This document shows positions 7,037 to 24,121 of a DNA stretch of 64,000 nt, piece by piece. Both the position numbers and the translations under genes were made by a program. The notes beneath the pieces were generated by a model, which was not told where the DNA came from, did not search any database, and saw nothing but the letters and a program-made list of their open reading frames with translations. The stretch lies in contig CAZHRF010000007.1 of NCBI GenBank assembly GCA_964534625.1, forward strand, positions 1 through 64,000. The letters run 5' to 3'. This DNA is from an uncultured archaeon (GTDB lineage Archaea > Asgardarchaeota > Heimdallarchaeia > Heimdallarchaeales > Heimdallarchaeaceae). The first letter of the stretch is position 1. Each line of letters opens with the position of its first letter.

Positions 7037-8236
7037 ATGGATAATATAGAAAATGGACAAACTTTGAATGATATGCTGATCAATAGTACGAAAATAATCT
7101 ATGAAAGAAAAAAAGAAGTAGAAGAAGTAGATGTACCAGAAAACGTTTTAGACACATGGCAAAAAATGTTAAACATTATAGCGGATATTTTCAATATCCC
7201 TTCCGCATTAATAATGAAGGTGAAACCTCCACATATTGAGGTGCTACTAGCAAGTGAAACAGAAAATAATCCCTACCATGTAGAAGAAAAAGAGCATCTC
7301 GCAGGATTATATTGTAATACAGTTATGGTAAAAGGAGAAAAGTTGCTTGTGCCAAATGCCCGAAAAACAGAGGCATGGAAAAATAACCCGGATATTAAAC
7401 TAGGAATGGTGTCATATCTAGGCTATCCCCTGAAACTACCAAACGGAGAAATGTTTGGCACAATCTGTGTGTTAGATGATAAAACTAATTATTACTCGAA
7501 AGAATTTGAAGAGATACTGGCAAACTTCAAAACAGTAGTAGAAGATTATATCAAATTAGTCTATAAAGAAGAGCAACTGGCAATAGAAGTGGAAAAAAGG
7601 AGAGAATTGCAAAGGATAATAGAAGAACAGCGAGATTTCCAAATACTGCTAAATACAATGTTGAAACATGATATGAAAAATAAGATTAGTGTGTTAAATG
7701 GATTAATACAAATGGTAGAAATAGAAAAGAAAGATGAAAATATACATGAAAGAATGGTATCAACAATAGAAAATGTGTTTAATCTACTTGAACAAGCATG
7801 GAGTTTGCATGATCTGGCAATGGACTATGGAGAAGAATATTGGCTAACAGCAGAGAAAATAAGAGAAATAATCAAACCATATGGAGTAGAAGCAGAGATA
7901 CGTGGGGACTTTCCTATACGAATGACCAAAGCTATTACAATTATTCTAGCTAATTTGATAGATAATGCTGTAGAACATGGAAAAACCGATAAAATAACCA
8001 TAGAAAGTGAATTAAAGAAAGAAGAAGTAGTACTAACTTTTATAGACTATGGAAAAGGAATCCCCCCTATAGTTAGAACGAAAATATTCGATAAGGGATA
8101 TGTCTATGGTGATACAGGAAAAACAGGGTTGGGATTGTACATAGTGAAAACAATTGTCAACCAAATAGGGGGAGAAATAGAGTTGCTGAATAATGAACCA
8201 AAAGGAACGAAAGTAGTACTCAGACTACCAAAATAA
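7037..8236 (+). CDS. GAF-domain sensor histidine kinase
   Basis: GAF (GLYC...YLGYPL...FGTICVLD); KHDMKN H-box; NLIDNAVEHG, DYGKG, GTGLGL-type G2. Confidence 0.9.
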   Translation: MDNIENGQTLNDMLINSTKIIYERKKEVEEVDVPENVLDTWQKMLNIIADIFNIPSALIMKVKPPHIEVLLASETENNPYHVEEKEHLAGLYCNTVMVKGEKLLVPNARKTEAWKNNPDIKLGMVSYLGYPLKLPNGEMFGTICVLDDKTNYYSKEFEEILANFKTVVEDYIKLVYKEEQLAIEVEKRRELQRIIEEQRDFQILLNTMLKHDMKNKISVLNGLIQMVEIEKKDENIHERMVSTIENVFNLLEQAWSLHDLAMDYGEEYWLTAEKIREIIKPYGVEAEIRGDFPIRMTKAITIILANLIDNAVEHGKTDKITIESELKKEEVVLTFIDYGKGIPPIVRTKIFDKGYVYGDTGKTGLGLYIVKTIVNQIGGEIELLNNEPKGTKVVLRLPK

Positions 8237-8419
8237 AAATAATCCTTATTTGAAGACTAATAAGAATAGTTTAATACGGGCATTTTTATTCTTAACTGAA
8301 TTGAGAAAAAAATCAAATATTTTTAAAACTGACACTACAAACTATATGATAATTTTAATTTCCCTAAAAATAAACTTATGTTGATTAATATTTAAATAAA
8401 TAACTTCATTTTCAATGGA

Positions 8420-9817
8420 TTAAAACATTAATTTTGGCTTTTTTTTCAAAGATATAAAGTCACAAATTTCATTTTCTGTCAAAGATTTTGATGGATCCCA
8501 ATACAAAATATTATGCTTTTCCAGAAAATTCTTTTTTTCTTCCTTATTTTTTAGTTTAAAATAGTTTTTTGTGGTATTTAAACCAAGGCTTTTTCTTTCA
8601 AATTCTCGTGCATAATAGTCGAATCCCATTCTAACGCATATATTATGTCGTCTAACATTTCTTCTAAATTGTTTAATCAATATATCTGACCATTTTTCAT
8701 GGATAAAATAATCATCATTTGTTTGTTCATAATTTCTTGGATTATATTTATCAAATTTTTGATCCAATGGACGGAATCTACAATCTGAAATTTGAACTTG
8801 CCATTCAAAGCATTTTGCTCTTTTTTTTTCCATTTCATCAAAAGGTATATCCCAATTATATAACATAAACAATTCCAAATCTTTCGAATTATATCCTGCA
8901 TTTACTAAAATATCTAATTGTTTTTTAATTTCATCTTTTTTCTCATATCCCCAATCCCAGGCTATTCTAACATTTCTGAAACTTGCCTTTTTTAATTTAT
9001 TAGCAAGTTCTGGATCACTCATTAATATCCTTCCATCGAATCCACTTTGAGATTCACACCAAAGTATTTCTCTTTTTTTCTTTAATCTAATCAATTCATC
9101 TAATATATTATGTACATTTTTATTTTTGAAGAAATTATTATCATAAAACACAATTTTTCTTTTGAAGATCTCTTCTTTTATTGAAGGTTTTGATGTTTCT
9201 TTTGGCTCTATTCGCCATGTACCACAAAAAGGACAACTTCTAAAACATCCCCTTTGTGCATGTAATATTTGAAAATCAACATCTGAAATATATTTATCGT
9301 AAATTTTCTCCATTCTTTTTCCTTTTACACTTTCTGCTTCTGGATATGTTCCCTTATGAACTTCATCACATTTAGTTAGTTTTTTTGTTTCTTCTACACC
9401 AAACAAACTAGCTGCAATACCACCTACTACCGTCTTTGTATTCGGAAACAAAGTTTTGTAATGTTCTACACTTTTTTTGACATCATTAATCCAGTATGTG
9501 AATAGTGATGTTATCCAGACTTCATCTGGTTCGAATAGCCAATATTCTTGATTGGAAATAAGGTCAAATGAATAGTTCATTTGGATAATATTTGAACACG
9601 TTTTATGATTCATTATAGGGGTTATAGATGAATAAATAGGGGTTATAAAACTGGTAATAGGCTTATTACCTCTTACTAATTTAAACCTATTTCCTTTGTC
9701 TTCTAATACTGCTGCTATTTTTAGTAATCCAATTGGTAAAAAATCTTTGTGATTCTTACTTTTTGTAGGCAAAGGAAAATCTGGTTCCACCAACAAATAT
9801 TTTTTACTTTCCATCAT
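8420..9817 (-). CDS. Cobalamin-binding-like domain + radical SAM protein (paralog 1)
   Basis: PIGLLKIA...WITSLFTYW...VVGGIAAS N-terminal domain; RGCFRSCPFC CxxxCxxC; FYDNN. Confidence 0.85.
   Translation of the reverse strand: MMESKKYLLVEPDFPLPTKSKNHKDFLPIGLLKIAAVLEDKGNRFKLVRGNKPITSFITPIYSSITPIMNHKTCSNIIQMNYSFDLISNQEYWLFEPDEVWITSLFTYWINDVKKSVEHYKTLFPNTKTVVGGIAASLFGVEETKKLTKCDEVHKGTYPEAESVKGKRMEKIYDKYISDVDFQILHAQRGCFRSCPFCGTWRIEPKETSKPSIKEEIFKRKIVFYDNNFFKNKNVHNILDELIRLKKKREILWCESQSGFDGRILMSDPELANKLKKASFRNVRIAWDWGYEKKDEIKKQLDILVNAGYNSKDLELFMLYNWDIPFDEMEKKRAKCFEWQVQISDCRFRPLDQKFDKYNPRNYEQTNDDYFIHEKWSDILIKQFRRNVRRHNICVRMGFDYYAREFERKSLGLNTTKNYFKLKNKEEKKNFLEKHNILYWDPSKSLTENEICDFISLKKKPKLMF
9615..9647. 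repeat. 12-bp direct repeat (ataggggttata x2, 21-nt period) in the variable loop of radical SAM paralog 1
   Basis: Copies at 9615-9626 and 9636-9647, encoding ITPI...ITPI. Confidence 0.8.
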
Positions 9818-9879
9818 AAACTGGTCTATCCTTGTATATATTAGTATTTACTGATCATGTTTAAATTTTACGATCCAAC

Positions 9880-10097
9880 TAGTCTTTGCTGGGATTTTCC
9901 CTTTCACCTGGCCCCGCGCTATTCGCTTGCCTTTGAGTCTTGTTCGTTCCTGACTATCCTTCGTTGGCCTCTCAAGACCTTCAGGCTATCGCTTTAGTGT
10001 CGTGCCCAGATGTGAGTTCGTACTAAAACTCATACGTTGAGGTAGAATTATTCCGACAAAAACCTTTTGGTCGGTTTCTCCCCAACGTACCCTCGCA
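9880..10097 (-). ncRNA. Candidate structured non-coding RNA or leader, family unidentified
   Basis: ~49% GC (hand count 106/215) in much more AT-rich flanks; at least 4 hairpins; two A-C mismatches on + become G-U on -; BRE/TATA upstream on -. Confidence 0.6.
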
Positions 10098-10123
10098 TTT
10101 TTAAATAAGACGAAAGTCACTTA

Positions 10124-10140
10124 GATATATACCGTTTTTA
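10124..10140 (-). promoter_or_regulatory. Putative BRE+TATA promoter for the structured element / radical SAM 1
   Basis: Minus strand taaaaacgg-tatatatc about 27-30 nt before the GC-rich block starts. Confidence 0.45.
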
Positions 10141-10223
10141 CTAACAATAATTTTAAATATGAATCTATTAGTTATATATTAAACACTTGTATGGTATAAT
10201 AATGGGTTTAATGGGGTTTTTCA

Positions 10224-13200
10224 ATGTATAAAAACGAAAATAAATTTGTTCACTTATTGGAGACCTATTTAGTTGATAGATTATCCGGTAATGATAAAGA
10301 ATATGAGTTTATTGAAGGGACAAGAAAACCCTCAAATGAACTAATAATTGGGAACCTAGGGGATAAAGATGAGGAAGAATTACATCTCGTGACAACTAAA
10401 ACCAAAACAAATTCAATCCGATTGAAATTTTTAACAAAAACAAATAGTTCAATTTCTATTCAAGTGAAATTCTCACTTTATTATCAAGCTTTTCCATCTT
10501 ATGAACGATTTTTGACTAAAATAAGAAATAAAATCCTAAATACTTTTGAATTATCAAATAAACCAGCTTTATCCATAAATAATATTATTGAATTTCTAGA
10601 GAACGAAGAATATGGTAGTCTTAATCTTCCTGTTGGCTGGAAACGTTTGGATGTTACTCCTCAAAAGATTAAATTCGACATTTCCAATTCTTTTTCAAAT
10701 GCAAAACCACATTTTGATGATGCTATAAAACAAATTAAAGATGATCCATATAGTACTGGTTCTTCTTTTATGATGATAAAAGAGGATTTTACAATACCAT
10801 TATCAAACATTAAAACAGAGGAAGAATATATTGATTTTATTCAATCCATTAAATTTGATATGCCCATGTTGAATTGGCAATTGAAGGTTCAATGTGAAAC
10901 ACGAAATTATAAAAAACAAAATTGTGATGAAATCACGTTAACCTTTCTAAATGATACATTATGTGATAATTCTTATGAAACTTTCATGTTTAATTTTAAT
11001 GCTCATATTGATCTAAAAAACAATGAATTGTGTCCTTACTGTTTTTCTTATGAATATGAAGGATATAATGAATCCTACTCAAATTATCTCCAAACAACTA
11101 ATTGTGATGCTAAATATGATGCAGAATTAAATACAATTCAAACAAGACATTATGCTAGGTTTGAACAGCCTTCTATTATTCCAAAGACTGATTTTACGGA
11201 TTTAGCTGGAAATAGTTTTTCTCTTAAATTTGAAGATTTATCTGATGATTCTACAATTGATCGTATTTTAGATAATTTAATTGATCAGATGCATTCCTAT
11301 TTGGAGTTTTACAAAAAACAACCCCAATACCAGAATGATGAGAAGTTTACAAATTATACAACTTGTTTTTCAGTTAATTTTGAAAGAATAATGGATGGTG
11401 TTAAATTAATTAAACAGAATAAGATAATTAGGCAGTCATTTCAATTGTTAAATGAAACATTTAAACAAGCAAGTTCTTACGATAGTTGGAGGGTCTTTCA
11501 ACTATGCTTCATATTGATGCTTATTCCTGATATTGTTGAAAAAAAATCTAGAAGAAATATTACTGAAGTTTTGCATGTACAAACGGGTGGGGGTAAGTCT
11601 GAAACTTATTTTGGATGTGTAATTTTTTCAGCCTTTTTTGATCGCTTAACTGGTAAAAATTTTGGACTAACAGCCATCACAAAGTTTCCATTGCGTATGT
11701 TATCTATTCAACAATTACAGAGAATTGCAAGAATAATGATCTTTGCTGATAAAGTCAGGAGAGATTATGAAATAGACGGCGAGCCTTTTTCTGTAGGTTA
11801 TTTTGTAGGTAATAATATTGACTTTCCTGGTGATAATTGTAAATTAATAAAGGAGATCAAAAACAAGCAGATTAAAGGGAAGATAATCGAAATATGTCCG
11901 TTCTGCAAAACTAACAATGTAATTTTGAGTGTTTCTGAGGAAGAAATGACCATTTATCATAAATGTACAGACTGCAAAGAAAAGTTTAACTTGTTTTTTA
12001 TTGATAATGAGATATATAGAAAAATACCCACTTTTATTGTTTCAACAGTTGATAAGCACTCATCAATATCACGAAACAGGAGGTACAGGAATCTTATTGG
12101 AGGAAAGTTGGATAAATGTCCAAAAGGTCATGGTCTTATTCCACATGGGGATAAATGCTCATATGTAAATGAAATAGTAAATGACCGAAAAAACAAGTGT
12201 AATGAAACTGGTGAGAGAGTAAATATTGATTTTTCTACAGCCCCTACCTTAATAATTCAAGATGAAATGCATCTTATCAAAGAAAGCTTTGGAACAATAG
12301 ATTCTCATTTTGAAAGCTTAATTGAAGTAATGCAGCAAGAAATGAGTGGTTATGGAATAAAAAATATAGCCATGACTGCAACTATATCTGGTGCGAACCA
12401 TCAGATAAAGCAGCTATACAATAAACAAACAAATATTTTTCCTTCAAAATCTCCTTTTGGAATGGGAGATAATGATTTCTTTCATGAACTAATTGAAGAA
12501 CATGGTAATGTAAAACTTCAAAGGATTATCCTAGGTTTAAGACCAAATGCTAGAGATAATCAATTTGCTTGTTCTTTGACACTTAGGCATCTTGCAAATT
12601 TTTATTCTGATATTGAAAATAATAGGTCTGAATTTTGTAAAAAGTACGGTTTTAATTATTCTGTGCTAGATAAGCTTCTTGAAAGATATAAATCTGGACT
12701 TACTTATCATAACAAAAAATCAGATGTTCATACAATGGAATATTATTTACTTGATGTTGTAAACTCGCATTTGAAAAAATCAGTTAAAGTACAAGGAAAA
12801 CCATTAACTGGTGATAACTCTTTAGATGAAATTAAAGAATTAATTGAAGAAATTGAAAATGCTAATTTATCTAAACAAAAAGACCTTATTTTTACGTTTG
12901 CTACAAGTGTCGTATCACATGGTGTTGATATTGGAAAATGGAACATAATGGAATTTCAAGGAATCCCAAGATCAACAGCAGAGTATATTCAGTCACTTAG
13001 TCGAGTGGGTAGAAAGAATCTAGGTCTAGTATTATTGTGGTTTTATGGTAATAGAGTCCGAGATGTATCATTTTATCACAATTTTTCAAACTACCACGAT
13101 ATTTTGGAACATCATGTCAATAGTATTCCTATATCTAGGTGGGCAAAACTTGGTGTGGATCAAACGTTTCATTCTGTTTTTTGTGCATCAATAATCAACT

Positions 13201-13571
13201 TTTTTGCTGATAAATATAATCGACCACTTTATACAGTTGATGCTGTAAATGATTTGTTCAAACAAGATTCAGTAATTGAAGAATTAATTGATTTTATTAA
13301 AAAAGCATATCATGTTAATGAATCAAATCCAAAATCACATTTTTTGAATGATTATATTCCAAGAGAAGTAGAACAACGATTAAAGGCCCTCAAGACCCGT
13401 AATTTTAGTCGTAACTCAAGATACTTTTTCCCCATCGCTTTAGATTCTTTATCTAAACCCTTATATCGTACTCAGTATGGTATGCGAGGAATACAAGATG
13501 AGCTCATAATAAAACCCAGTAGTGATGATAAAAAGTTTGTAGAAGAATATCTAAAAGGTGAGAATAAGTGA
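10224..13571 (+). CDS. drmA: DISARM DrmA-like SF2 helicase
   Basis: QTGGGKSE Walker A, PLRMLSIQQLQR, TVDK, QDEMH, TAT, SHGVDI, EYIQSLSRVGR; 1115 aa; followed by DUF1998 and PLD genes. Confidence 0.85.
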   Translation: MYKNENKFVHLLETYLVDRLSGNDKEYEFIEGTRKPSNELIIGNLGDKDEEELHLVTTKTKTNSIRLKFLTKTNSSISIQVKFSLYYQAFPSYERFLTKIRNKILNTFELSNKPALSINNIIEFLENEEYGSLNLPVGWKRLDVTPQKIKFDISNSFSNAKPHFDDAIKQIKDDPYSTGSSFMMIKEDFTIPLSNIKTEEEYIDFIQSIKFDMPMLNWQLKVQCETRNYKKQNCDEITLTFLNDTLCDNSYETFMFNFNAHIDLKNNELCPYCFSYEYEGYNESYSNYLQTTNCDAKYDAELNTIQTRHYARFEQPSIIPKTDFTDLAGNSFSLKFEDLSDDSTIDRILDNLIDQMHSYLEFYKKQPQYQNDEKFTNYTTCFSVNFERIMDGVKLIKQNKIIRQSFQLLNETFKQASSYDSWRVFQLCFILMLIPDIVEKKSRRNITEVLHVQTGGGKSETYFGCVIFSAFFDRLTGKNFGLTAITKFPLRMLSIQQLQRIARIMIFADKVRRDYEIDGEPFSVGYFVGNNIDFPGDNCKLIKEIKNKQIKGKIIEICPFCKTNNVILSVSEEEMTIYHKCTDCKEKFNLFFIDNEIYRKIPTFIVSTVDKHSSISRNRRYRNLIGGKLDKCPKGHGLIPHGDKCSYVNEIVNDRKNKCNETGERVNIDFSTAPTLIIQDEMHLIKESFGTIDSHFESLIEVMQQEMSGYGIKNIAMTATISGANHQIKQLYNKQTNIFPSKSPFGMGDNDFFHELIEEHGNVKLQRIILGLRPNARDNQFACSLTLRHLANFYSDIENNRSEFCKKYGFNYSVLDKLLERYKSGLTYHNKKSDVHTMEYYLLDVVNSHLKKSVKVQGKPLTGDNSLDEIKELIEEIENANLSKQKDLIFTFATSVVSHGVDIGKWNIMEFQGIPRSTAEYIQSLSRVGRKNLGLVLLWFYGNRVRDVSFYHNFSNYHDILEHHVNSIPISRWAKLGVDQTFHSVFCASIINFFADKYNRPLYTVDAVNDLFKQDSVIEELIDFIKKAYHVNESNPKSHFLNDYIPREVEQRLKALKTRNFSRNSRYFFPIALDSLSKPLYRTQYGMRGIQDELIIKPSSDDKKFVEEYLKGENK

Positions 13572-15403
13572 CAGAGGTAAAATTCCACTTTCCGGGTAAT
13601 AGTGCTCTTTTTAGAGCAACAAAAGATCTTATATTCGTAAAAGGTAAATTAGCTTTCAAAGTCAATTATCTCAATACAATTGACTTTGAAGAGAATGATG
13701 CTGGTAACTATAAACGAATAATTGATAGGATTTTTTATCTTATTAAAAATAATTATAATAATCGGATAGAAAAATATAATTTATCCCTTAATAAGATTGA
13801 TTCCAAAGAAAATTTAGAACTTAAAAAACTCAAATTAATAACATCAAAACCAGGAGAAAGTAAAGCATCGACTTCAGGATATGCACAAGTTTTTCCTAAA
13901 ACCTTTGTCTGTGATAAATGTAGTGATTTCAAAGTCGAATATAATCTTAATGATATTTCCAAAAACTGTCAAGTAACTGGATGTAGTGGTATCTACAAAC
14001 AAGTATCTGTTGTTAAATTTTGTGAAAAATGTGGTCATGTAGACCAGCTTTTTTATCAGTGTCAGAATAACAAAAAACATAGGGTAAAATTATATAGAAA
14101 AAAAGCCGATGATTTAACAACTTGGTATTTTCAATGTGCAACATGTAAGGGGAAAAAGGTTGATATTTTGGGTTTTAGATGCTTTCATGAAGACTTTGTT
14201 AGTAAAGTGAAATTATTAGATGACAAAGCTTCAAATTTTAAACCTTTAACTGTACGCGAGGGAGCAATATTTATTCCTTCAGTTTATACAATGGTAGATT
14301 TACCTTCAAGCAACAAGATTACTGATCAAGCCCTAAATTATATTTCATTGGGTCTAGCTCAAGGTTTAATTAAGGATGAACAAGGTAACATTCGATCCTT
14401 GGAAAGCATAAATGGGGACTATGAGCTTTATAATAGCTCTCTTGCAAGGAAAAGATTTGGAAAAGATATGAGTGACCTTGAATGGATGAAACAGTGTAAT
14501 GTGTATGAGATTGAACAAATAATTCAAGAATTGAAAGATACAGTTATAGATAGCAGAAATTTAAACTATTTATTGGATTATTTATCATTAGCTAGTAATA
14601 TATCAGAAGATCATCTTGCTCTAAATTTTTCCAACTACCTTTCCACTATTGTTGATGATAAAGAAAAGCAAATTAAAACAAAACTTTATCAAAAGATGAA
14701 AGAAGACTTAAACATTGATGAAATCACGTATATTGAAAATGTGAAGCTGTTAAACATAAATTATGGGTATATCCGTGGAGTAAATAAATTCTATGAAGAC
14801 GGCTTTAAACCACATTTTGAACCAAATTGGTCTAACAAATTTGATTCTGAAAATAATAAATTCGAAGCTTATGTTTTTCCCTTTGAAACCGAGGGAATAT
14901 TAATAAGGCTTGATATGGGTTCAATTCTTAAATGGTTAGAGAAAAATAATATTAGGTCTTTCACAAAAGATGAATTAGATAATCCTGGTTTAACCATATT
15001 AAAGCTAAATGATGATCTTATAGAGGATTTTGTTTTTCCATTATTACATACTTTATCTCATCAAATAATTAAACTATCATCTGATTATACAGGAATAGAT
15101 ATTGACTCGCATAGTGAAATTATATATCCTAGAAATGGAGCCATTTTTATTTTTTCTTTGAATAATGTGAATATTGGCGGATTCAAATATTTATTCGAGA
15201 ATGCAATATTTGAATTATTTAGAAAGGTAAACACTACTATAGATAGCTGTATATACGATCCCCTATGTACTAATTTAAAGGGTGCTTGTTTTTCATGTTT
15301 ATACTTATCTGAGCATGTATGTAGGTATTTTAACCAACGATTAGATCGTGATTTATATAATGCTAAAAAGCGTTTTAAGGTGGGATTTTGGGATGTCTCA
15401 TAA
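13568..15403 (+). CDS. drmB: DISARM DrmB-like DUF1998 protein
   Basis: LLHTLSH...CIYDPLC...GACFSCLYLSEHVCRYFNQRLDR DUF1998 signature; N-terminal CxxC clusters; overlaps the drmA stop by 4 nt. Confidence 0.85.
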   Translation: MTEVKFHFPGNSALFRATKDLIFVKGKLAFKVNYLNTIDFEENDAGNYKRIIDRIFYLIKNNYNNRIEKYNLSLNKIDSKENLELKKLKLITSKPGESKASTSGYAQVFPKTFVCDKCSDFKVEYNLNDISKNCQVTGCSGIYKQVSVVKFCEKCGHVDQLFYQCQNNKKHRVKLYRKKADDLTTWYFQCATCKGKKVDILGFRCFHEDFVSKVKLLDDKASNFKPLTVREGAIFIPSVYTMVDLPSSNKITDQALNYISLGLAQGLIKDEQGNIRSLESINGDYELYNSSLARKRFGKDMSDLEWMKQCNVYEIEQIIQELKDTVIDSRNLNYLLDYLSLASNISEDHLALNFSNYLSTIVDDKEKQIKTKLYQKMKEDLNIDEITYIENVKLLNINYGYIRGVNKFYEDGFKPHFEPNWSNKFDSENNKFEAYVFPFETEGILIRLDMGSILKWLEKNNIRSFTKDELDNPGLTILKLNDDLIEDFVFPLLHTLSHQIIKLSSDYTGIDIDSHSEIIYPRNGAIFIFSLNNVNIGGFKYLFENAIFELFRKVNTTIDSCIYDPLCTNLKGACFSCLYLSEHVCRYFNQRLDRDLYNAKKRFKVGFWDVS

Positions 15404-16223
15404 AAGCAGATATGAAAAAATCATATTTAAAACACTGTCAAATATTCCTCCAGAGGGATTAGGAAAAAAGGAGTTATATAGGATACTAGTTGAAAAAAAC
15501 ATAGATAAAATTGAGTTAAATTTAGTTTTGGATTATTTAAAAATAGAAAATGTTATCTATTTTCAAAAAAATAGTGATGAGATTATTATAAATAAGAAAT
15601 CAGCAAATTGGCAACAGTTTTTATCCAATTTGAAACAGAAAAAAGAACCAATTAATAATATTGGCCTCGTTTTTAATTTCCCTCAAATGGATAAGTTTGG
15701 TCTATCTTCAAAATTTAAAATTAATAATGTTGACATTGTAGTTTTATCAGATTGTTTTAAGGCCCTTTTCAAAAAGGCAAAATCTAACATTAAAATAATA
15801 TCCCCTTTCATAGATATTCGTGGATTAAAACGTTTTTACAAAACATTGTCAAATAAGGCAAAAAATGGGGTCAAAATTACAATACTAGCGAGAGACCTTA
15901 CAAATTCCACTAATAGTCGTAGGTTTAGAAAACTCAAAAAATTTATGGAAAATACTAGTCCTAAATTGAATAATATGTTTAGGTTCTATGAGTACCACTA
16001 TATAAATGGAAGAGGTTTAATATTAAGTAGTATTCATTCAAAGTTAATTATTGTAGATGGTAGACATTTTTATTGTGGTAGTGGAGAGATAAGAGAAAAT
16101 TCCTTTACCAAGAATCTTGAAAATGGTGTTTGTCAATATAATACAGTTCATGCAAAAAATTTTGAATTAGTCTTTGATTATCTTATTTCTATATCAAATG
16201 AAATTATCTGGGGCGATTACTAA
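15393..16223 (+). CDS. drmC: DISARM DrmC-like phospholipase D family nuclease
   Basis: IISPF and a single HSKLIIVD (HxKxxxxD)...GSGE motif; likely start ATG 15393 overlapping the drmB end (ORF track gives 15348). Confidence 0.8.
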   Translation: MSHKSRYEKIIFKTLSNIPPEGLGKKELYRILVEKNIDKIELNLVLDYLKIENVIYFQKNSDEIIINKKSANWQQFLSNLKQKKEPINNIGLVFNFPQMDKFGLSSKFKINNVDIVVLSDCFKALFKKAKSNIKIISPFIDIRGLKRFYKTLSNKAKNGVKITILARDLTNSTNSRRFRKLKKFMENTSPKLNNMFRFYEYHYINGRGLILSSIHSKLIIVDGRHFYCGSGEIRENSFTKNLENGVCQYNTVHAKNFELVFDYLISISNEIIWGDY

Positions 16224-18853
16224 TGATGTTTATTGATAATTTGTTTATACAAAATGAAAATTGGAAAACAGGTTCAGCATTTGAAAGACTAGAAAATATT
16301 AGTCCTTTAACTAAAGAAGTTTCACTTTCGGTATTTAAAGCATTAAAAAAAGATTTCAATGTTATTATATCATACCCCGATAACATTTTTGCTCCTTTAT
16401 CCGTAATTTGTGGTTATTATGCTGATTTATCAAGATCAAAACAAAAAGATATTATGGTTTACTCACATAATAATAATGCAAAAATCGATGAAAACCCCCA
16501 AAAGTTTCATATTCGTAATTTTTCTAGATTAACATATTATAAAGCATTTTTATATGAATGGATAATACCATTTGAGTATAACGAAAGTGATAATAGTCTA
16601 ATCTATTGTGCGAATCTAAATTTGATAAAAAACCGCAAATATAAGCGCGAATTGAAGAAAAGGCAAATAGAAGCTATTTGTAATGATAAAATTCCTAGTA
16701 TTATCTTTTCAGGGACAGATACACCATTAAATCTAACTCAAATTGACTGGTTAAAGATCGGTAATAGAACCCATGAACACGAATTAAAATTCGATTTTGG
16801 GTTAATAGTCTTTGAAAATATGGATCGCTTAATACATAATGAGTATAATATGAATATCTTTTTGGAATGGTTGAACAATATTACAAAAAAAGAAACAAAA
16901 CTTCTTTTTCATTTTTCTAATCCATATAATAAATTCATTAGAGAAATAAAGGAAAAAACCAATTCACTACTCTATCATTGTAGTATGAGTTTTTTACATA
17001 AACAAAAGTCATATTTTGAGAATGTTTATCCTCAAACTATAAAAAGCAAGAAATTAGTTAGGAAATATAACTTAGATTCTCCAGATACATACGAGGCTTC
17101 TAATCAAATAATTCCTTTGAAGCCAATAGCTACTTATGATTTTGATAAGCGGTTGAGAAAGTGTAGAAATCTGTTTTATAATTTAAAAACTACATCGGAC
17201 GATTTAAACAAAACCAACTATTATTCCATTAAACACTTATTGTATACCATAAAAAATATGGCTGTAAAGCCAAAAAACTATACGGTTTTATATTATGATA
17301 AATACAATGATCATTATTATTATATAACGGTAATTGAACTGCTTAGAAAACTTAAAGCTTTACTAGCGGATAAAATTTCATTTGTAGAGTTTGCAAATGA
17401 ATTTGAATCTTTGGTTGAAGATTTATCAATTAGTAAAGATATTACAGATCCGAATTTCTCAAATCCAAAAACAAAAAATAATGCATTGGTTGATTTTACC
17501 TTGAAAATAATTAAGTATAGACTTAACTTATTAGAGTTAACCGAATATCCTCATTTGAATGCATACCTAGGTAATTTTGTCGACAAAATTCAACCTGTAA
17601 AAAATGTAAAAGATTATTCAGTAATAATTGGAGTTCAAACATCACGAGAAAGAAATATGCTTTATGCTGATTTTAATTCACTAGCGATGGCGCAAGAAGG
17701 AAATATTGATTTAATCAAACGAATTAAAATATACAGTCTGAAACAACTAACTCATAAAAGATTCATACCTCATAATGTTGATTTGTTACTTACAGGTTCA
17801 TTAGCTCTAAAGAATTTTCAAGAATACTTTAGAGGTTATGATAATATATTTGTCGTAAGCTATAAAGGTAAAGATTATGATTCAATATTGGAACATATTG
17901 ATATTGTTGAAAGAATTAGACCAGAAGAAAATAGACAATCTTTGAGATACATACATGAACTAAAGCAAAAGACTAAAATGAAAAAACCTGATTTCCTCGA
18001 AGAATATGATTTAAGTGAAGAAAAAATCTCTATTAGAGCTTTAATGAAAAAAGAAAGTAAGGACATTTATGGGCGAGTGAGAGATATGGTTTTAACTTCA
18101 CCAAAATATTCTAATGCAAAAGATCAAGAGGAAGAAGTCAAAGAAATTGAAACTATAACAAACAAAATTTCACAATCTAATGATGATATTGATGATTATG
18201 ATATGATTATAAGTCTTGAAAATATGGATAATGGTCAAGCTAAAACTATTAAGGTAAAAGAGAATTGGTCCTTTTTATGCGTTAAGGATAAAAAGGAAAT
18301 GAAACTAGAAGAAAAAATTGTTGATGAATTAACAAATGGCGACTTTCTAATATTATTAGATCAAGATGAGAAAAGGAGCTTTTTTGATTTTATAATTGAT
18401 ACATTTAATTTGGAGGAAGGTGTAGATGTAGAACTTGTTTCCTCTTGGAAACATATTCTTGATAGATATGTAACAAATAATGAAGAAGATTCTTCTTTAT
18501 TATATCAAGAATATGAAAAATTGTGCTGCGAACATAATTATGAGCCAAAACATATCAACACATTTAGAAACTGGATTAAAGGGAACGTAATAGGAACTAG
18601 AGATCCAGAAGATATCTATATATTGGGTTTACTAACTGGCAATGAAAAACTTGTAGACCAATATAAGCATATTCATAAAGAAATTGAAGAGCTTTGGAAA
18701 ATTAGAAGGCTAGTTGGAAAGAAAATAAATAAAATTGTTGGAGAACTTCTTGGAGGTAGTTTCAACCAATATGATTTAAATTATGAAGAATCTATTATTT
18801 ATGATAAAATTACTATATACAGTATAACTAGTTTAGAGCATGTTGAAGAGTAG
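16223..18853 (+). CDS. DrmE-like protein (class 2 DISARM accessory), 876 aa
   Basis: Coupled to drmC (TAATG); degenerate helicase-like N-terminus; C-terminal HINTFRNWIKGNVIGTRD resembles the DrmE C-terminus as I recall it; size fits. Confidence 0.55.
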   Translation: MMFIDNLFIQNENWKTGSAFERLENISPLTKEVSLSVFKALKKDFNVIISYPDNIFAPLSVICGYYADLSRSKQKDIMVYSHNNNAKIDENPQKFHIRNFSRLTYYKAFLYEWIIPFEYNESDNSLIYCANLNLIKNRKYKRELKKRQIEAICNDKIPSIIFSGTDTPLNLTQIDWLKIGNRTHEHELKFDFGLIVFENMDRLIHNEYNMNIFLEWLNNITKKETKLLFHFSNPYNKFIREIKEKTNSLLYHCSMSFLHKQKSYFENVYPQTIKSKKLVRKYNLDSPDTYEASNQIIPLKPIATYDFDKRLRKCRNLFYNLKTTSDDLNKTNYYSIKHLLYTIKNMAVKPKNYTVLYYDKYNDHYYYITVIELLRKLKALLADKISFVEFANEFESLVEDLSISKDITDPNFSNPKTKNNALVDFTLKIIKYRLNLLELTEYPHLNAYLGNFVDKIQPVKNVKDYSVIIGVQTSRERNMLYADFNSLAMAQEGNIDLIKRIKIYSLKQLTHKRFIPHNVDLLLTGSLALKNFQEYFRGYDNIFVVSYKGKDYDSILEHIDIVERIRPEENRQSLRYIHELKQKTKMKKPDFLEEYDLSEEKISIRALMKKESKDIYGRVRDMVLTSPKYSNAKDQEEEVKEIETITNKISQSNDDIDDYDMIISLENMDNGQAKTIKVKENWSFLCVKDKKEMKLEEKIVDELTNGDFLILLDQDEKRSFFDFIIDTFNLEEGVDVELVSSWKHILDRYVTNNEEDSSLLYQEYEKLCCEHNYEPKHINTFRNWIKGNVIGTRDPEDIYILGLLTGNEKLVDQYKHIHKEIEELWKIRRLVGKKINKIVGELLGGSFNQYDLNYEESIIYDKITIYSITSLEHVEE

Positions 18854-18957
18854 GTTTTGGAACATTTTATGTTTTTATCCATTTTTTCATGATATTAGTA
18901 AACGTTGCTAATCTTTAATTGTAATTTTACATTAATTCTATACTTTTTCCAGCATTC

Positions 18958-19309
18958 TTCATTTTTTTCGTCTTTTCTTCTCCAAAAAATATTGCCGCTA
19001 TAGCCCCTATCCCTATTTTTGCTTTTGGAAATCTTTTTTTTAATGTTTAACACTATTTCTGACATATTCTATCCAATATGTAAATAATGACATAATCCCG
19101 ATTTCATCAGGTACGAAGCTATCTTCTTCTTTAAACAAAATATGATTTTCTCTTAGTTTTCCTTTTACAATTTCTACTTCATGTCCTTTGATCTCCAACA
19201 AAGCAGCCATTTTTAATAATCCAATTGGCAAAAAGTCTTTATGATTCTTACTTTTATGAGATGTAGGAAATTCGGGGTCTTCTAACAAATATTTCATTAC
19301 ACCACTCAC
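18958..19309 (-). pseudogene. Truncated and frameshifted third radical SAM paralog (N-terminal domain only)
   Basis: KYLLEDPEFPTSHKSKNHKDFLPIGLLK...SLFTYW; a 1-nt deletion at ~19041 creates TAA; homology resumes in another frame as KKRFPKAKIGIGAIAAIFFGEEKTKK and ends near 18958. Confidence 0.85.
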
Positions 19310-19418
19310 ATAATTTATTTCTATTTTACTTCTTCTATATTATTGATAAATGAATTGTCTCACAATGGTTTATGATTTATTTCTTGAAAAATACGATGGG
19401 GGAAATATATTTACTTAC

Positions 19419-20732
19419 TCAATACAAAATACTATTATGTATTAGATGATCTTTACAATCTATCTCTTTATAGTTTCTACTGGGATCCCAAAATGAAATT
19501 TCATGTTTATTCAAGAAATCTTCTTTTTCCATTTTTTTATCTACATCAAAATATTTTTCCTTAATTTTATATTCTTTTTTTTGTTGTTCAAATGTTTTAA
19601 TGTGAAACTCTAAATCCATTCTCACACAAATATTATGCCTTCTGACATTTTTTCTGAATTGTTTTATAAGTATATCAGACCAAATTGGTTCATGTATATA
19701 ATAATCCTCCTTGGTTTGCCCAAGCTTCCTTGGATTATACTGATCATATTCCTGATCTAAGGGTCTATATCTACAATCAGCGATTTGTACTTTCCATTCA
19801 AAGCATTTTGCACGCTTTTTTTCCATTTCATTAAAAGGAATGTCATAATTATAAAGCATGAATACTTCTAGATTCTTACTATTGTAACCCGCTTCTTCTA
19901 AGATGTCCAATTGTTTTTTAATCTGTTCTGCTTGCTTATATCCCCAATCCCATGCAATTCGTACTTGGCGAAATCCAGCTGTTTTAATTTTGGTTGCCAA
20001 TTCTGGATCTTTTCTAAGCAGTCTCCCATCAAACCCACTTTGAGATTCACACCATTTTATTGTCTTATCTTCTTTTAATTGTATTAGTTCATCCAATATA
20101 TCATGAATATGTGGGTTTTGTAGGAAATTGTTGTCATAGAAAACTAGTTTCTTTTTGAAAATTTTCTTTTTTATTGATTTTTCATAACTTTCTACTGGTT
20201 CAATGATCCATACTCCACAAAATTCGCATTTTCTAAAGCAACCTCTTTGTGAATGAATAATTTGGTAATCTACTTCTGGAACGTATTTATTATACATCTG
20301 TTTCAATTTATATCGTGGTATCTCTTCTGCTTCTTTCATAATAGTCTTGAAAACAGAATCACAACCTGTAAGCTTTTTAGTCTTTTCTTTTCCAAACAAG
20401 CTTGCAGCTATTCCACCAACAACAATTTTGGAGTGCGGATATTTATTTCTGTGAACGGAAACACATTCTTTAACATAAGAGATCCAATAGGTGAATAGCG
20501 ATGTTATCCAGACTTCATTTGGTATGAACTCTTTTGGAGTTTCATTATTTTGGAAAAAGTGGTCTAATGTTACATATCTATTATTTTTATCATTCATGAC
20601 AATTTTTACTCTATTACCTTTTAATTCTAACATTGCTGCAAGTTTTAATAAACTTGAAGGTAAGAAGTTTTTATGTTTTTTACTCTTAGTAGGAATAGGG
20701 AAGTCTGGCTGTACGAGTAAGTATTTTTTCAT
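19419..20732 (-). CDS. Cobalamin-binding-like domain + radical SAM protein (paralog 2)
   Basis: RGCFRKCEFC; long identical blocks with 8420-9817 (WCESQSGFDGR, RIAWDWGY, EMEKKRAKCFEW). Confidence 0.85.
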   Translation of the reverse strand: MKKYLLVQPDFPIPTKSKKHKNFLPSSLLKLAAMLELKGNRVKIVMNDKNNRYVTLDHFFQNNETPKEFIPNEVWITSLFTYWISYVKECVSVHRNKYPHSKIVVGGIAASLFGKEKTKKLTGCDSVFKTIMKEAEEIPRYKLKQMYNKYVPEVDYQIIHSQRGCFRKCEFCGVWIIEPVESYEKSIKKKIFKKKLVFYDNNFLQNPHIHDILDELIQLKEDKTIKWCESQSGFDGRLLRKDPELATKIKTAGFRQVRIAWDWGYKQAEQIKKQLDILEEAGYNSKNLEVFMLYNYDIPFNEMEKKRAKCFEWKVQIADCRYRPLDQEYDQYNPRKLGQTKEDYYIHEPIWSDILIKQFRKNVRRHNICVRMDLEFHIKTFEQQKKEYKIKEKYFDVDKKMEKEDFLNKHEISFWDPSRNYKEIDCKDHLIHNSILY

Positions 20733-20906
20733 GGCACATCCTAGTTATATGTGACGATGTCTTTTTAGGAAACAAGAAAACAACTGCCATTTTATTATCT
20801 ATCAAATGTTTCTAGAATCTTTTTTTTAGATTTATAGTGTGTATATTATCTATTTGTACAATTTTTTGTAGAAAGAATTATTAATATATTAAAGAGACGA
20901 ATATAT

Positions 20907-21392
20907 ATGGACTATAATGATTATAATTTCCGAAATGCAAAATCCATTTTGAAAGATAAATTAGTGTTATCCAAAGTTGATCAAACTTTACAAAACTTGA
21001 GTAAAATATCAAGTGATGAAAGAGTCTTCACACAAATAGTCTCACATTTTGAAAATTATCATATTTGGGAAAAAAATTATTCTTTAACAGGACAGAATGA
21101 AATCAACGAAAAATATCATTTATATGACAAATTTAACAAGATAGCAATTGGTATTACAATCACAAGAAAAGAATTTGTAACTGAAACAATTCTGAAACTT
21201 ATGTTAGGCTATAATGATTTAATAACAGATGTAGGCATAATTATTGTACCAAACTCACTTGAGGATGCAGAAAAACTTGCTAGTTCATACCAGGCTTCAC
21301 CTACACTTGAATATTGTAAGTCTTATCTTGAAACATACAGTTCTATAGTCACCATACCTGTTTGGGTCATAGGTTTGATTATAGAAAAGTAA
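20907..21392 (+). CDS. BglII/BstYI-fold restriction endonuclease-like protein, catalytic residues apparently lost
   Basis: DVGIIIVP and IPVWVIGL motifs of the family; the expected D...E-x-Q is replaced by H...G-I-T. Confidence 0.55.
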   Translation: MDYNDYNFRNAKSILKDKLVLSKVDQTLQNLSKISSDERVFTQIVSHFENYHIWEKNYSLTGQNEINEKYHLYDKFNKIAIGITITRKEFVTETILKLMLGYNDLITDVGIIIVPNSLEDAEKLASSYQASPTLEYCKSYLETYSSIVTIPVWVIGLIIEK

Positions 21393-21445
21393 GTAGAAAT
21401 TATCCTATACTCTTTTTCTTATCAATATTTATAATCCAATATGTT

Positions 21446-22297
21446 TCAAGTCTTTCTAAAGGCATATTTTCTGCCTTTTTCATAATACATTTTGGTTATA
21501 TCTAAGATATTACTGGTAATATTTTTTTTGAGCTGCCATAATTTGAATTGTATTTTGTCATCATTGATAACATAATTTACCTCAAAATGGATTAGGATAA
21601 TCTCACGCAATTCACCAATTGATTTAAGATATATATAGGGTAAAACAAGCTGATGTAGACTCTGTGATTCTTTAGTTCCCCTTTTCAACTCTATTAAAAC
21701 AACATATTTATCATTTTCCACTGCATGATCTATTTCAAATTGCGTTTCTTCAATAATAACAATATTGTTTCCAATTTTACATTCTCCAACTACAATGCTT
21801 TGTAGTCTTCCACATGGTTCTAGTGGTTTTCCAACACTATATCCAAGAACATTTTCTAAATAGTGTCTTAAAATCTTTAATCGTTTAAACAGAAAGAAAC
21901 CATTTTCTTCGTTGTTAATCTCACTGCGCAATAATAATGACGGTTCTTTGATTATATTTGGTTTTAAGTTTAATGAATTATCTTTCTTGCAGATGGGAAG
22001 TTTTGGGAAAATAGATGGATACTTACGATTTGGTCCTGTTTTTGTTATTACACACCCTCCACTTACATGTCTGAATAACTCTAAGTCATTCTCTTTTAAT
22101 ATTCTCGGTAATGTTTTATATTCATAATGGGGGATCATTCTAACTGGTGATGAATTAACCGCCTTCTCCTTGAACACTTCATTAGTTATTTCAAACGTTG
22201 TAGGACCGTTTTTCATCTTTAGCCATTTTTGTATTTCTTTACTGGCAGAACTTTTATAGAAAATTTTTTCCCAATTTGTATTTTTACTCATTAACAA
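21446..22297 (-). CDS. PD-(D/E)xK restriction-enzyme-like nuclease (DUF6996/DUF6997-like)
   Basis: WEKIF...FEIT...LPRILKEN N-terminus; QFEID...LIELK...HQL catalytic motif. Confidence 0.6.
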   Translation of the reverse strand: MLMSKNTNWEKIFYKSSASKEIQKWLKMKNGPTTFEITNEVFKEKAVNSSPVRMIPHYEYKTLPRILKENDLELFRHVSGGCVITKTGPNRKYPSIFPKLPICKKDNSLNLKPNIIKEPSLLLRSEINNEENGFFLFKRLKILRHYLENVLGYSVGKPLEPCGRLQSIVVGECKIGNNIVIIEETQFEIDHAVENDKYVVLIELKRGTKESQSLHQLVLPYIYLKSIGELREIILIHFEVNYVINDDKIQFKLWQLKKNITSNILDITKMYYEKGRKYAFRKT

Positions 22298-22483
22298 GAC
22301 TTTTATTTATTTGTTTAAAAAAATCTTTCCTAGATCGGATATAATACAGCTGTAAGTATTTATTGTGTCTTGATTTCAATTTATGTAATAGGATTTTATT
22401 AATAAAAGTAGAATCAAAAGGACTACTACCTAGTTAGAAGGGCATATTAAGACGTTTACTGCTTATTGTCTTCTTTCATCTTA

Positions 22484-24121
22484 CTAATCTTCTTCAGGAA
22501 ATATTTTTTTCATATTATTCAGTACTTTTTCTTTTCCCTTTATGTCCCCAATAGATCTAAACAGTTCTAAGCTCTTGTTGAAATATTTTTTAGCTTTCTT
22601 TTTGTTTTTTAAACTTGAATATACATTTCCCATATTAGCTAAAATATTCGCTTGACCTTGCAAGTCATTGAGTTCATGTTTCAATGCTAGGGCTTCTTCT
22701 AATAACTTTAAAGCCTCACTTTCTTTTTCTTGTTCCAAATATATTGTGGCTATATTGTTTAAACATATACTCTCTCTAAATGTATCCCCTGTTCTTTTAT
22801 GTAGATTAAGACTGAGCGTATAATGATCTAAAGCTTTGCTATAGTCTTTGTTTTTTGAAAATAAATTTCCTATACTGTTAATCACGATAGCTTCAGCATT
22901 TTTATCGTTAAGTTTTCTATTAATTTCCAATGATTGTTCATAATATTCTTTAGCTTTAGAAAGATTACTGGTTTTTGTTAAAACTGATCCCATATTATGC
23001 AACGTTGCAGCTTGAATTTTTTGATCTTTCATTTCTTTAGCGTTTTCAAGTGTTTCATTATAGTATTCTAATGCTTTAGTATACTTTCCCCAATTCTCAT
23101 AAACATTTCCTATGTTATTGATGATAATGTTCTCCATTTTTAGATCGTTATTTTCTGAAGCCATTGTTTGTGCTTTCATAAAGTGCCCTAATGCTTTCTG
23201 ATACATTCCTTGTTTATTATACAGTAGGCCAATATTGCTGTATACTGTATAAACGATCGCTTTATTTCCACACGATTCATTAATTGCTATACTTTTTTTA
23301 TAGTATTCAATTGCTTTTTCAAATTGTCCTGTAATTTCATATAGAGCAGCTAAGTTATTCGTTATTATTGCTTCCAAGTTCTTATCTTTTATCATCTTTG
23401 CTCCATATAGCGCCTCTTCATAATTAATAATGGCTTCTTTGTTCTCACCTTGCTGTTTGTGTAATAGCCCAATATTATTTAATATTCTAACTTGAAGTTC
23501 AACATTATTTGTTGTTTTAGCCATTTTCAGCGCTTTCGAATAATAGTCCTTTGCTTGCTTGTAATTCCCTAACTTTTTTTCAATGAAACCAATATTATTA
23601 GCTGCTAACGCTGCTGCATGTAGATCATCTAACACTTCGTTAAGTGCTAGAGATTTTTCATAATACTCTTTAGCTAATCCCATTTCTTTCAGTTGCTCAT
23701 ATAGATACGCTAGGTTGTTTAAGGTTACCCCCTCTCCTACTTTATCATTAATTTTTCTTCTTATTTCAAGTGACCATTCAAAATACTTTATAGCTGCCTT
23801 AGTTTCATTTAATTTCATAGAACAAGCTGCTAAGTTATTTAATGTGTTTCCTGCTTCTTTTAGATCATTCAACTTTTCTCGTAACTCTAAAACCTTTTTA
23901 AATAGCTTACTTGCCATAGAATAATTTTTCATGTCATAGAAAACACTTGCCATTCTATTTGTAAGATTTGCTTCTCCTTCCTTGTTATCTGTTTTGTTGT
24001 ATTCGCTAATGGCTCTTTCCCACTTTTTATACCACTCAGTAATATTGCCTTTTTGTAGATGTTTTTTTCCCTCTTTCACAAGAGAATTAATTTGATCTTC
24101 ATTTTGGTTCATAAGGATCAC
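22484..24121 (-). CDS. TPR-repeat protein (~12-13 repeats of ~40 aa)
   Basis: Repeated LNNLA/NNIG...A..YY..SL units; no catalytic domain. Confidence 0.92.
   Translation of the reverse strand: MILMNQNEDQINSLVKEGKKHLQKGNITEWYKKWERAISEYNKTDNKEGEANLTNRMASVFYDMKNYSMASKLFKKVLELREKLNDLKEAGNTLNNLAACSMKLNETKAAIKYFEWSLEIRRKINDKVGEGVTLNNLAYLYEQLKEMGLAKEYYEKSLALNEVLDDLHAAALAANNIGFIEKKLGNYKQAKDYYSKALKMAKTTNNVELQVRILNNIGLLHKQQGENKEAIINYEEALYGAKMIKDKNLEAIITNNLAALYEITGQFEKAIEYYKKSIAINESCGNKAIVYTVYSNIGLLYNKQGMYQKALGHFMKAQTMASENNDLKMENIIINNIGNVYENWGKYTKALEYYNETLENAKEMKDQKIQAATLHNMGSVLTKTSNLSKAKEYYEQSLEINRKLNDKNAEAIVINSIGNLFSKNKDYSKALDHYTLSLNLHKRTGDTFRESICLNNIATIYLEQEKESEALKLLEEALALKHELNDLQGQANILANMGNVYSSLKNKKKAKKYFNKSLELFRSIGDIKGKEKVLNNMKKIFPEED

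Follow-up and report, generated by a model that had tools for sequence, protein, structure and literature searches.

Class 2 DISARM systems are encoded by the drmE-drmA-drmB-drmC-drmMII cluster (Ofir et al. 2018, as summarized in PMC11529989). Methylated DNA damps the ATPase activity of DrmAB, whose discrimination relies mainly on the structure of the DNA (PMC9142583). Restriction by PbeABCD also depends on a self mark, and for 165 of 553 PbeAC no writer was known (PMC6459918). The published writers of the Pbe/CxC ABC-ATPase systems are either phosphorothioation genes or cytosine methylases, and a radical SAM partner is mentioned in neither PMC6459918 nor PMC10853773. The Dpd/BRIGADE systems, which pair a YprA helicase and a PLD nuclease with 7-deazaguanine, provide a precedent for a DISARM-like helicase-nuclease core that works with a non-methyl DNA mark; the paper that describes BRIGADE and its supplements mention no radical SAM or cobalamin partners (PMC12458937). 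Among the class B radical SAM enzymes, no case of a member acting on DNA is given in PMC12931638 or PMC13331322.

An A-B-C-E operon and its flanking radical SAM genes

The window analyzed here, 64,000 nucleotides of a contig from an uncultured Asgard archaeon of the family Heimdallarchaeaceae, contains a DISARM-type operon, drmA-drmB-drmC-drmE, that is intact. The first-pass annotation of this DNA had described four overlapping drm genes, and these genes, which overlap mutually, as well as all other open reading frames, were found where it had placed them. The drmA gene (positions 10224 to 13571, plus strand) encodes an SF2 helicase of 1,115 aa that matches the PADLOC DrmA profile (E value of 5e-112) and retains intact helicase motifs, including the Walker A motif TGGGKS, DEMH, and motif VI. 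It is followed on the same strand by drmB (13568 to 15403), which codes for a 611-aa DUF1998-type zinc-binding partner with its DUF1998 cysteines in place (PADLOC DrmB, 1e-27), and by drmC (15348 to 16223), whose product, a PLD/HKD nuclease of 291 aa if translation starts at the first GTG, was recognized by profile (PLDc_2, 7e-14; DrmC, 2e-9) and has an intact HxKxxxxD motif at residue 230. The last gene (16223 to 18853, plus strand) encodes a DrmE-like protein of 876 aa, which scored 40.3 bits against the Pfam DrmE_C profile (3.5e-10; cut-off, 27) and 73 bits against the NCBIfam DrmE profile (1e-20; cut-off, 80). All four Drm proteins fall short of the NCBIfam (equivalog) cut-offs and should thus be considered divergent members of their families. 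The DrmE-like protein has a predicted SF2-helicase-like fold, with weak matches of its structure model to RIG-I and Hef (TM scores of 0.27 to 0.43), but no recognizable Walker A motif, so it is probably an inactive helicase scaffold.

This operon resembles class 2 DISARM in combining a DrmA helicase gene with an adjacent, separate gene for the DUF1998 protein DrmB, a PLD nuclease gene drmC next to drmB, and a gene of the drmE family. It differs in gene order (A-B-C-E), in the placement of its DrmA within a separate clade that is sister to the class 2 DrmA proteins (SH support of 100; 28 to 32% identity to the canonical copies), and in having neither drmMII nor Vsr. The hallmark genes of class 1, drmD (SNF2) and the adenine methylase gene drmMI, were both missing from the flanking open reading frames. 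A Dpd/BRIGADE assignment would call for preQ0 genes along with the DpdA transglycosylase and an unsplit helicase. The window has none of these; PADLOC found no Dpd match among the ten proteins of the island, in which the helicase and DUF1998 are encoded by separate genes. Likewise, no Dnd phosphorothioation gene was matched in the island, and Pbe genes are absent from the window.

On the minus strand, the operon is flanked by two radical SAM genes. Paralog A (8420 to 9817; 465 aa) combines a B12-binding-like Rossmann domain with a radical SAM barrel and retains the family consensus motifs PIGLLK, TSLFTYW, CxxxCxxC, DNN, and RIAWD, which makes it the likelier active copy. Paralog B (19419 to 20732; 437 aa), its sister in the tree, has an intact CxxxCxxC motif and departs from the consensus by the G27S and G130T replacements, both at positions that are 97 to 98% conserved, and by E8Q and R46M; this copy appears to be drifting or diverged. 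The two had been described as near-identical but share only 57% identity. A broken third copy had been reported as well and is indeed there (approximately 18960 to 19309, minus strand), although reduced to the N-terminal ∼120 residues, with a stop codon near position 19040, a frameshift, and no cluster motif. A single public contig covers this part in full with zero differences, although the assembly may itself have been derived from it. Paralogs A and B, which are encoded on the opposite strand at distances of 406 and 565 bases from the operon, have Pbe-linked genes as their nearest relatives, so the pairing of drm and radical SAM genes in this window is recent. Elsewhere, there is usually one radical SAM copy, located directly after drmE in the slot of the methylase; the bracketing of the operon by paralogs is a local accident.

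Fold and partner modules of the radical SAM family

The CxxxCxxC motif was found in all 130 members of this family and the DxHxxG motif in none. The structure model (pLDDT of 87) shows a two-domain fold, a cobalamin-type Rossmann domain followed by a radical SAM barrel. It matches radical SAM barrels; the fold matches include AprD4 (Z score of 20.9), MgmA (20.5), and TsrM (17.0), as well as OxsB, RimO, MiaB, and Mmp10, and residues 1 to 134 match cobalamin-binding domains with Z scores of about 10 to 11. An N-terminal Rossmann domain without DxHxxG and a CxxxCxxC barrel are shared with AprD4 and with the class B methylases TokK, TsrM, CysS, and MgmA/QCMT. The family differs from these in its low identity (9 to 15%), in its basic N-terminal insert and C-terminal helix, and in having RIAWD where class B enzymes carry their GxES motif. 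A narrow family profile found no match in a PDB sequence search, and the B12-binding matches of paralogs A and B are weak, with Pfam scores under the cut-off. The invariant TSLFTYW motif aligns, weakly (6 bits), with the TokK segment that holds Trp76, placing an aromatic residue of the family at this position; in TokK, Trp76 lies at the lower cobalamin face, according to the TokK papers. However, AprD4, which ties for the best fold match, binds no cobalamin (PMC12931638).

Genes of this family are found in anaerobic archaea and bacteria, and 70 of 81 adjoin restriction-type modules: Pbe in 27 cases, GHKL in 21, Drm in 11, HerA in 5, and ParB-SNF2 and DndB-HEPN in 3 each. PbeABCD is thus the most common partner. 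The genes are mostly co-oriented with the partner module and within about 100 bases of it; start and stop codons often overlap, and such operonic spacing recurs in dozens of genomes. Functional coupling of the radical SAM gene to restriction-type cassettes is highly probable, and the lack of enrichment near defense genes that the first-pass annotation had named as damaging to its proposal is not what the neighborhoods display. DndB/DGQHR genes, which are typical of DNA modification clusters, recur beside three subfamilies. In the 27 Pbe loci, DndC was never found and a methylase only 4 times; a DndC-like seed combined with an SGGKDS scan matched just two of all loci (L221 and L053). No description of this radical SAM family beside DISARM or Pbe was found in the openly accessible literature searched, which did not include Iyer et al. 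2013.

Solitary relatives (phrog_9298) occur in phages of anaerobes, where they stand alone among replication genes; two of them are near a phage DNA methylase. The phage proteins are shorter (about 300 aa) and 25 to 45% identical, with a significant match over the core (E value of 6e-22). A viral search with a single radical SAM protein gave no match, and the family alignment retrieved two IMG/VR contigs.

The close fold matches MgmA, RimO, MiaB, and Mmp10 act on proteins or RNA, and no DNA-binding or target recognition domain is recognizable in the radical SAM protein; its basic character (median pI of 9.1) exceeds that of the genome's other radical SAM proteins (8.5) by little and is only weakly informative. 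The enzyme might accordingly modify a protein or RNA, such as a subunit of the partner complex or a tRNA, and in this way activate or restrain the cassette. We regard this as improbable, given that the modules associated with this single family number at least six and are unrelated as proteins, with at least 28 partner changes on its tree: they have DNA in common, whereas one protein substrate for all of them is difficult to imagine, and the phage copies, being solitary, lack such a partner. A longer-protein search and six longer homologs yielded no fusion to a DNA methylase, a weak test that leaves aside proteins of 765 to 815 aa; the one long match carries a NosD beta-helix fusion. PCNA/beta-clamp tails were considered as a family trait and rejected, as a loose PIP-like motif matched 7 of 120 homologs and 2 of 85 locus proteins, which is near chance.

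Radical SAM genes and C5 methylases across DrmA clades

The converse search, started from DrmA with the loci dereplicated at 90%, found the radical SAM gene in all 19 informative A-B-C-E loci that contain drmC and a C5 methylase in none of them; the query had been built from radical-SAM-linked loci, which favors that part of the clade, and kindred loci are not independent. In the canonical class 2 (E-A-B-C) sister clade, a C5 methylase was present in 8 of 9 loci, often with Vsr, and the radical SAM gene in none. The gene contents thus reveal mutual exclusion of the radical SAM gene and the C5 methylase, with two exceptions (L143 and L238) that carry both. Among 400 Asgard genomes, the radical SAM gene is encoded in 6 of the 7 with this DrmA clade, as opposed to 19 of 400 overall. 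In 251 genomes of Methanobacteriaceae, the radical SAM gene adjoins each of the three complete A-B-C-E copies; of the 8 genomes that lack it, three have a C5 methylase beside the drm genes, one a D12 methylase, and one Vsr. Cultured carriers include Methanococcoides sp. FTZ1 (NZ_CP195121), in which a single operon comprises drmA-drmB-drmC, a gene for a long DrmE-like protein, and the radical SAM gene; Atabeyarchaeum (CP147780) is another carrier of the family, whereas in Methanobacterium alkalithermotolerans (CP058560), which has drmA-drmB-drmE, the radical SAM gene was not found. Several split drm genes were seen beside intact radical SAM genes, but as a sign that the restriction genes decay first these numbers are too small and the target sizes unequal, and they were not taken as evidence. 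The operon is best explained as a DISARM variant of the order drmA-drmB-drmC-drmE, in which a radical SAM enzyme replaces the cytosine methylase DrmMII. The first-pass annotation had proposed a drm-linked radical SAM writer in place of a methylase, and it named as one refutation that homologous loci normally carry a methylase that was simply lost here. The proposal is supported by these comparisons, and neither that pattern nor the other genomic one that could have spoken against it was observed.

The reported lack of any DNA methylase signature in the window was borne out: a motif scan found none in any of its open reading frames, and 12 methylase seeds had zero matches on the entire 96-kb contig. 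The whole-genome search that had been suggested uncovered two orphan C5 methylases on two other contigs (C50 and C3), and many N4 and N6 methylases are encoded on other contigs as well. With these orphans at hand, and with the window copies lying some hundreds of bases away on the opposite strand and related to Pbe-linked genes, the radical SAM genes might be mere cargo of a defense island next to a DISARM operon that is missing its former drmMII or relies on an orphan methylase. This reading is very unlikely and has been largely refuted by the operonic, often overlapping spacing, by the 19/19 versus 0/9 split between the two DrmA clades, and by the genome-level enrichment in Asgard archaea.

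The distant C5, N4, and N6 methylases would also suit an enzyme that hypermodifies a base already methylated by one of them, or one that makes a modified-base precursor for insertion by another enzyme, much as QueE makes the precursor for Dpd. A methylase is indeed found in about 12 of 80 radical SAM loci, including those of the relatives G017 and G030, and near the two phage copies mentioned above. However, most loci have none, and the gene is not regularly accompanied by any one methylase, transglycosylase, or kinase; dependence on a methylase that is unlinked yet has to match in sequence would hinder the spread of a mobile cassette. Further modification of a distant methylase's mark, which the first-pass annotation had offered as its alternative, is therefore less likely than direct writing, and this whole group of readings is given little credence.

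Some drmC-less A-B-E copies, including one in a complete genome (L225/L227), have no writer at all. Given these copies and the mainly structure-based discrimination by DrmAB, DrmAB need not have a writer. As PbeABCD, too, can exist without one, the slot occupied by the radical SAM gene need not be a writer slot, and the enzyme could instead be an effector or second arm that either makes an antiviral nucleotide or nucleoside analog, as viperins do or by ring chemistry of the OxsB type, or damages invading DNA that the helicase modules have bound. The radical SAM defense enzymes that are understood, viperins and Ophion, work in this manner and, to our knowledge, are not self-mark writers; the sugar-reworking OxsB and AprD4 are among the fold matches. 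Still, an effector role is unlikely, as it leaves unexplained the alternation with a C5 methylase, seen between DrmA clades and also among the Methanobacteriaceae, the constancy of the radical SAM gene exactly when the DrmC nuclease is present, and the solitary phage relatives among replication genes.

A putative self mark and the surroundings of the island

The comparisons argue, with slightly better than even confidence, that the radical SAM enzyme writes a covalent self mark on host DNA. It would bind double-stranded host DNA, generate a 5'-deoxyadenosyl radical from its [4Fe-4S] cluster and SAM, and add a group where ordinary methylases cannot reach, most likely by passing a methyl from base-off methylcobalamin to a carbon of the base or deoxyribose. 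The exact chemistry is the more tentative part, and cobalamin-dependent methylation is offered here as a possible rather than a probable assignment. The mark might damp DrmAB on self DNA, whereas unmarked viral DNA with 5' overhangs would load DrmAB and cause translocation and a replication block, with DrmC as the presumed nuclease of the system. As in DndCDEA-PbeABCD, this would be a mark-dependent restriction-type module with varied writers, and the writer would be a portable one, serving PbeABCD and other such cassettes. Phage relatives would probably mimic the mark. In its broadest form, the proposal is that a widespread single-gene radical SAM family writes a chemically new epigenetic mark, by radical and probably cobalamin-dependent carbon methylation of base or deoxyribose, that is used by DISARM, PbeABCD, and several unnamed restriction-type cassettes and imitated by phages; the chances that it holds in full appear evenly balanced.

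If this is correct, we know of no earlier radical SAM enzyme that marks the cell's own chromosome as self, and the self-mark writers would gain a further class next to methylases, phosphorothioation, and 7-deazaguanine. The DNA modification would be a new one for which current methylome tools have had no training, and it would account for some of the 'solitary' PbeABCD cassettes for which published work has no writer. The system would also represent a third DISARM configuration, overlooked by PADLOC-type rules because these require a methylase, and possibly an unrecognized barrier to the transformation of methanogens and other anaerobes.

Two genes with restriction endonuclease folds, also listed in the first-pass annotation, are island neighbors of the operon but are not conserved partners: neither had cluster mates in 82 loci, and both were rejected as parts of the system. 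One encodes a BglII-like PD-(D/E)xK protein of 161 aa (20907 to 21392, plus strand), in which the catalytic Glu is apparently replaced, and the other a DUF6997 protein of 283 aa (21446 to 22297, minus strand) with an intact E-D...E-x-K nuclease-type motif. A search for terminal repeats of a mobile element returned only the repeats formed by the paralogs, and Rfam had zero matches within positions 8200 to 22500. Joints seen in the comparison with public contigs rest on 21 to 23 bases and were taken as chance. The GC content of the island is 28.8%, compared to 32 to 33% on either side.

The drm operon and its island

Four overlapping plus-strand genes (10224-13571, 13568-15403, 15348-16223, and 16223-18853) match DrmA, DrmB, DrmC, and DrmE, respectively, in PADLOC, Pfam, and NCBIfam (with scores under the NCBIfam cut-offs), and their helicase, zinc, and HKD-type motifs are all intact, which bears out the drmABC(E) operon proposed in the first-pass annotation. 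Judging from structural matches, which are weak, DrmE probably has an inactive SF2-helicase-like fold. Two minus-strand radical SAM genes, paralog A (8420-9817) and paralog B (19419-20732), lie one on each side of the operon; they are 57% identical and are sisters in the tree. Paralog A keeps the family consensus; two near-invariant glycines are missing from paralog B. A third copy (∼18960-19309) is only a frameshifted N-terminal fragment, with the same letters in public contigs that possibly come from the source sample. The BglII-like (20907-21392, plus strand) and DUF6997 (21446-22297, minus strand) genes do not recur in related radical SAM loci.

The operon would work in the manner of class 2 DISARM, from which it differs in the methylase and in gene order. 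In the passages searched, no radical SAM partner is mentioned by the papers on DISARM structure, Asgard DISARM, the YprA survey (with supplements), the Dnd reappraisal, or PbeABCD, nor by two reviews from 2025-26 on radical SAM enzymes that use cobalamin. The operon is a real and apparently undescribed DISARM variant, and what makes it interesting is a candidate new family of DNA-modifying enzymes.

The window covers bases 1-64000 of the 96-kb contig C7, part of a 3.37-Mb Asgard archaeal genome that comes from a microbial mat metagenome and is 89.8% complete. The GC content of 8420-22297 is 28.8%, versus 32 to 33% around it, and of 30 genomes in the host's family only 2 have the radical SAM gene; accordingly, this segment is an acquired island. 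Between paralog A and drmA, the stretch 9850-10120 has a GC content of 45%, against 29% for the region, shows good folding of the minus strand (z -4.4), and has no Rfam match. The genome has further copies of 10013-10120, one on C42 (91%) and one on C47 (83%), and the 40 relatives examined have none; a small repeat, a mobile-element remnant, and a structured RNA are candidate readings. The left border (3305-8236) encodes two sensor histidine kinases (receiver-PAS-kinase and GAF-kinase) on either side of a 483-aa ORF. A 545-aa tetratricopeptide-repeat protein is also encoded at the island border (22484-24121), followed by what looks, by sequence, like an Acr3-type arsenite efflux transporter (24380-25537).

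Genomic partners of the radical SAM family

The family has >1,800 relatives, the nearest 50 to 58% identical, spread over archaea and bacteria. In 80 loci from species genomes, clustered and annotated around the radical SAM gene, 81 such genes were counted. They adjoin PbeABCD (27 genes), GHKL-ATPase (21), drm (11), HerA (5), and ParB-SNF2 (3) modules or a DndB-HEPN fusion (3); only 11, many of them at contig ends, have no partner module, so the suspected tie to defence modules holds. A fast tree with 113 labelled leaves implies at least 28 switches of partner type, a number that is rough for that reason. The window's copies cluster with Pbe-linked proteins, which makes the local drm pairing itself a partner swap. 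Across the loci, the radical SAM genes mostly lie <100 bases from the upstream partner, often overlapping it; that they are mere cargo seems very improbable.

DndC is absent from all 27 Pbe-linked loci, and any methylase is present in only 4; PbeABCD requires a self mark, and no writer was known for 165 of 553 PbeAC (PMC6459918). Two of the 11 drm loci encode a methylase, of the N4/D12 types and not DrmMII. The absence of a DNA methylase from the window, noted earlier, extends to all of contig C7. Other contigs of the genome encode two C5 methylases, as well as many N4/N6 ones. A second step performed by the radical SAM enzyme on a methylase-made mark, for which these distant genes could provide, is thus conceivable, if quite improbable given how few of the linked loci carry a methylase.

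Some loci show further associations. In the neighbourhood of the close homologue P0007, in locus L221 (265-11314), are BglII-like genes, a gene for an SRA domain, and a PAPS-reductase gene paired with one for an SMC-like ATPase. In L224 (9633-12729), on a probably Asgard-like contig, RNase III and Argonaute (Piwi) genes adjoin a radical SAM-PbeABCD cassette. In L126 (15588-17033), six similar loci, and L213, the drm operon is followed first by a gene from a second subfamily of radical SAM proteins (360 aa) and then by one for a DndB-like protein (481 aa).

Radical SAM genes and C5 methylases in drm loci

The 80 loci collected by DrmA alone form two clades (SH support of 100 each). After dereplication, the clade with the canonical E-A-B-C order encodes a C5 methylase, often with Vsr, in 8 of 9 informative loci and a radical SAM protein in none. 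Those A-B-C-E loci (the window's order) that include drmC encode the radical SAM protein in all 19 informative cases and a C5 methylase in none, which argues against a methylase that was simply lost here; in three more, one flank is too short, and L148, among them, may be a true exception. P values for this split are overstated, because the query alignment was built from DrmA proteins linked to radical SAM genes and related loci do not count as independent. Loci of this clade without drmC have the radical SAM gene (4), a C5 methylase (1), both (1), or neither (3). In one half of the clade (L064, 6629-9985, and 20 similar loci), the drmE position is occupied by a 1,050- to 1,120-aa protein with no Pfam or PADLOC match and a faint likeness to DrmE (pairwise E 2e-5).

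Two unbiased samples of genomes bear this split out. Among 400 Asgard genomes, the radical SAM gene is present in 6 of the 7 with A-B-C-E-type DrmA versus 19 overall; two genomes with divergent DrmA lack it, and the complete one has a C5 methylase beside drmA. Among 251 Methanobacteriaceae, 12 have the DrmA clade, and the radical SAM gene adjoins drm in 4: each of the three complete A-B-C-E copies has it, as does one A-B-E copy. Among the other 8, all copies seen lack drmC or are cut by a contig end; the 8 have a C5 methylase (3), a D12 methylase (1), Vsr (1), or none of these (3).

Gene content is established directly in these loci, as is the resulting pattern: methylase and radical SAM gene alternate, and the latter is constant in the presence of the nuclease gene drmC, as expected of a self-protecting writer. 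With moderate confidence, we regard the radical SAM enzyme as a putative writer of a self mark on host DNA. The most likely chemistry would be a radical transfer of a methyl group to an unactivated carbon, with cobalamin as the donor, and the mark would restrain DrmAB(C). DrmAB is loaded at 5' overhangs, and methylation damps it (PMC9142583). A main caution on the self-mark reading is the writer-less A-B-E copies. An antiviral effector would accommodate such copies and is an unlikely alternative, the alternation with methylases being the pattern expected of a writer. Methanogen loci L225, L226, L227, and L230, one of them in a complete genome, are drmA-drmB-drmE cassettes without drmC or any writer.

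Fold and relatives of the radical SAM enzyme

The fold, established as a model (pLDDT 87), comprises a Rossmann domain resembling cobalamin-binding domains and a radical SAM barrel. Structure comparison matches it best to AprD4 (Z 20.9) and MgmA, a glutamine C-methylase (Z 20.5), followed by MiaB, RimO, and TsrM (Z 17 to 17.5). Action on a protein or RNA substrate, to which a match like MgmA might point, appears rather improbable. Basic residues are conserved in the N-terminal insert and in the helix at the C terminus, where they possibly form a DNA face. None of 130 members has the His-on motif, which base-off class B enzymes usually lack (PMC13331322). In a broad profile search, TokK ranked first, and the invariant TSLFTYW aligned with the TokK segment that holds Trp76. 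This alignment fits cobalamin binding but is insufficient to establish it, because AprD4 has a cobalamin-type domain yet binds no cobalamin (PMC12931638).

Relatives of the family make up phrog_9298. They occur singly in phages that infect Bacteroides, Clostridium, Marinitoga, and methanogens, with replication genes around them; in two cases, a phage methylase is nearby. On plasmids of rhizobia and Novosphingobium, genes for distant relatives (23%) overlap one for a DGQHR/DndB protein, the third DndB link observed. In some homologues (G313, G392, G543, P0122, and P0123), a candidate specificity loop is inserted directly behind the cluster motif (residue ∼180-185). In P0391, the family's radical SAM domain ends a 1,376-aa NosD/beta-helix protein, which may reflect misassembly or read-through.
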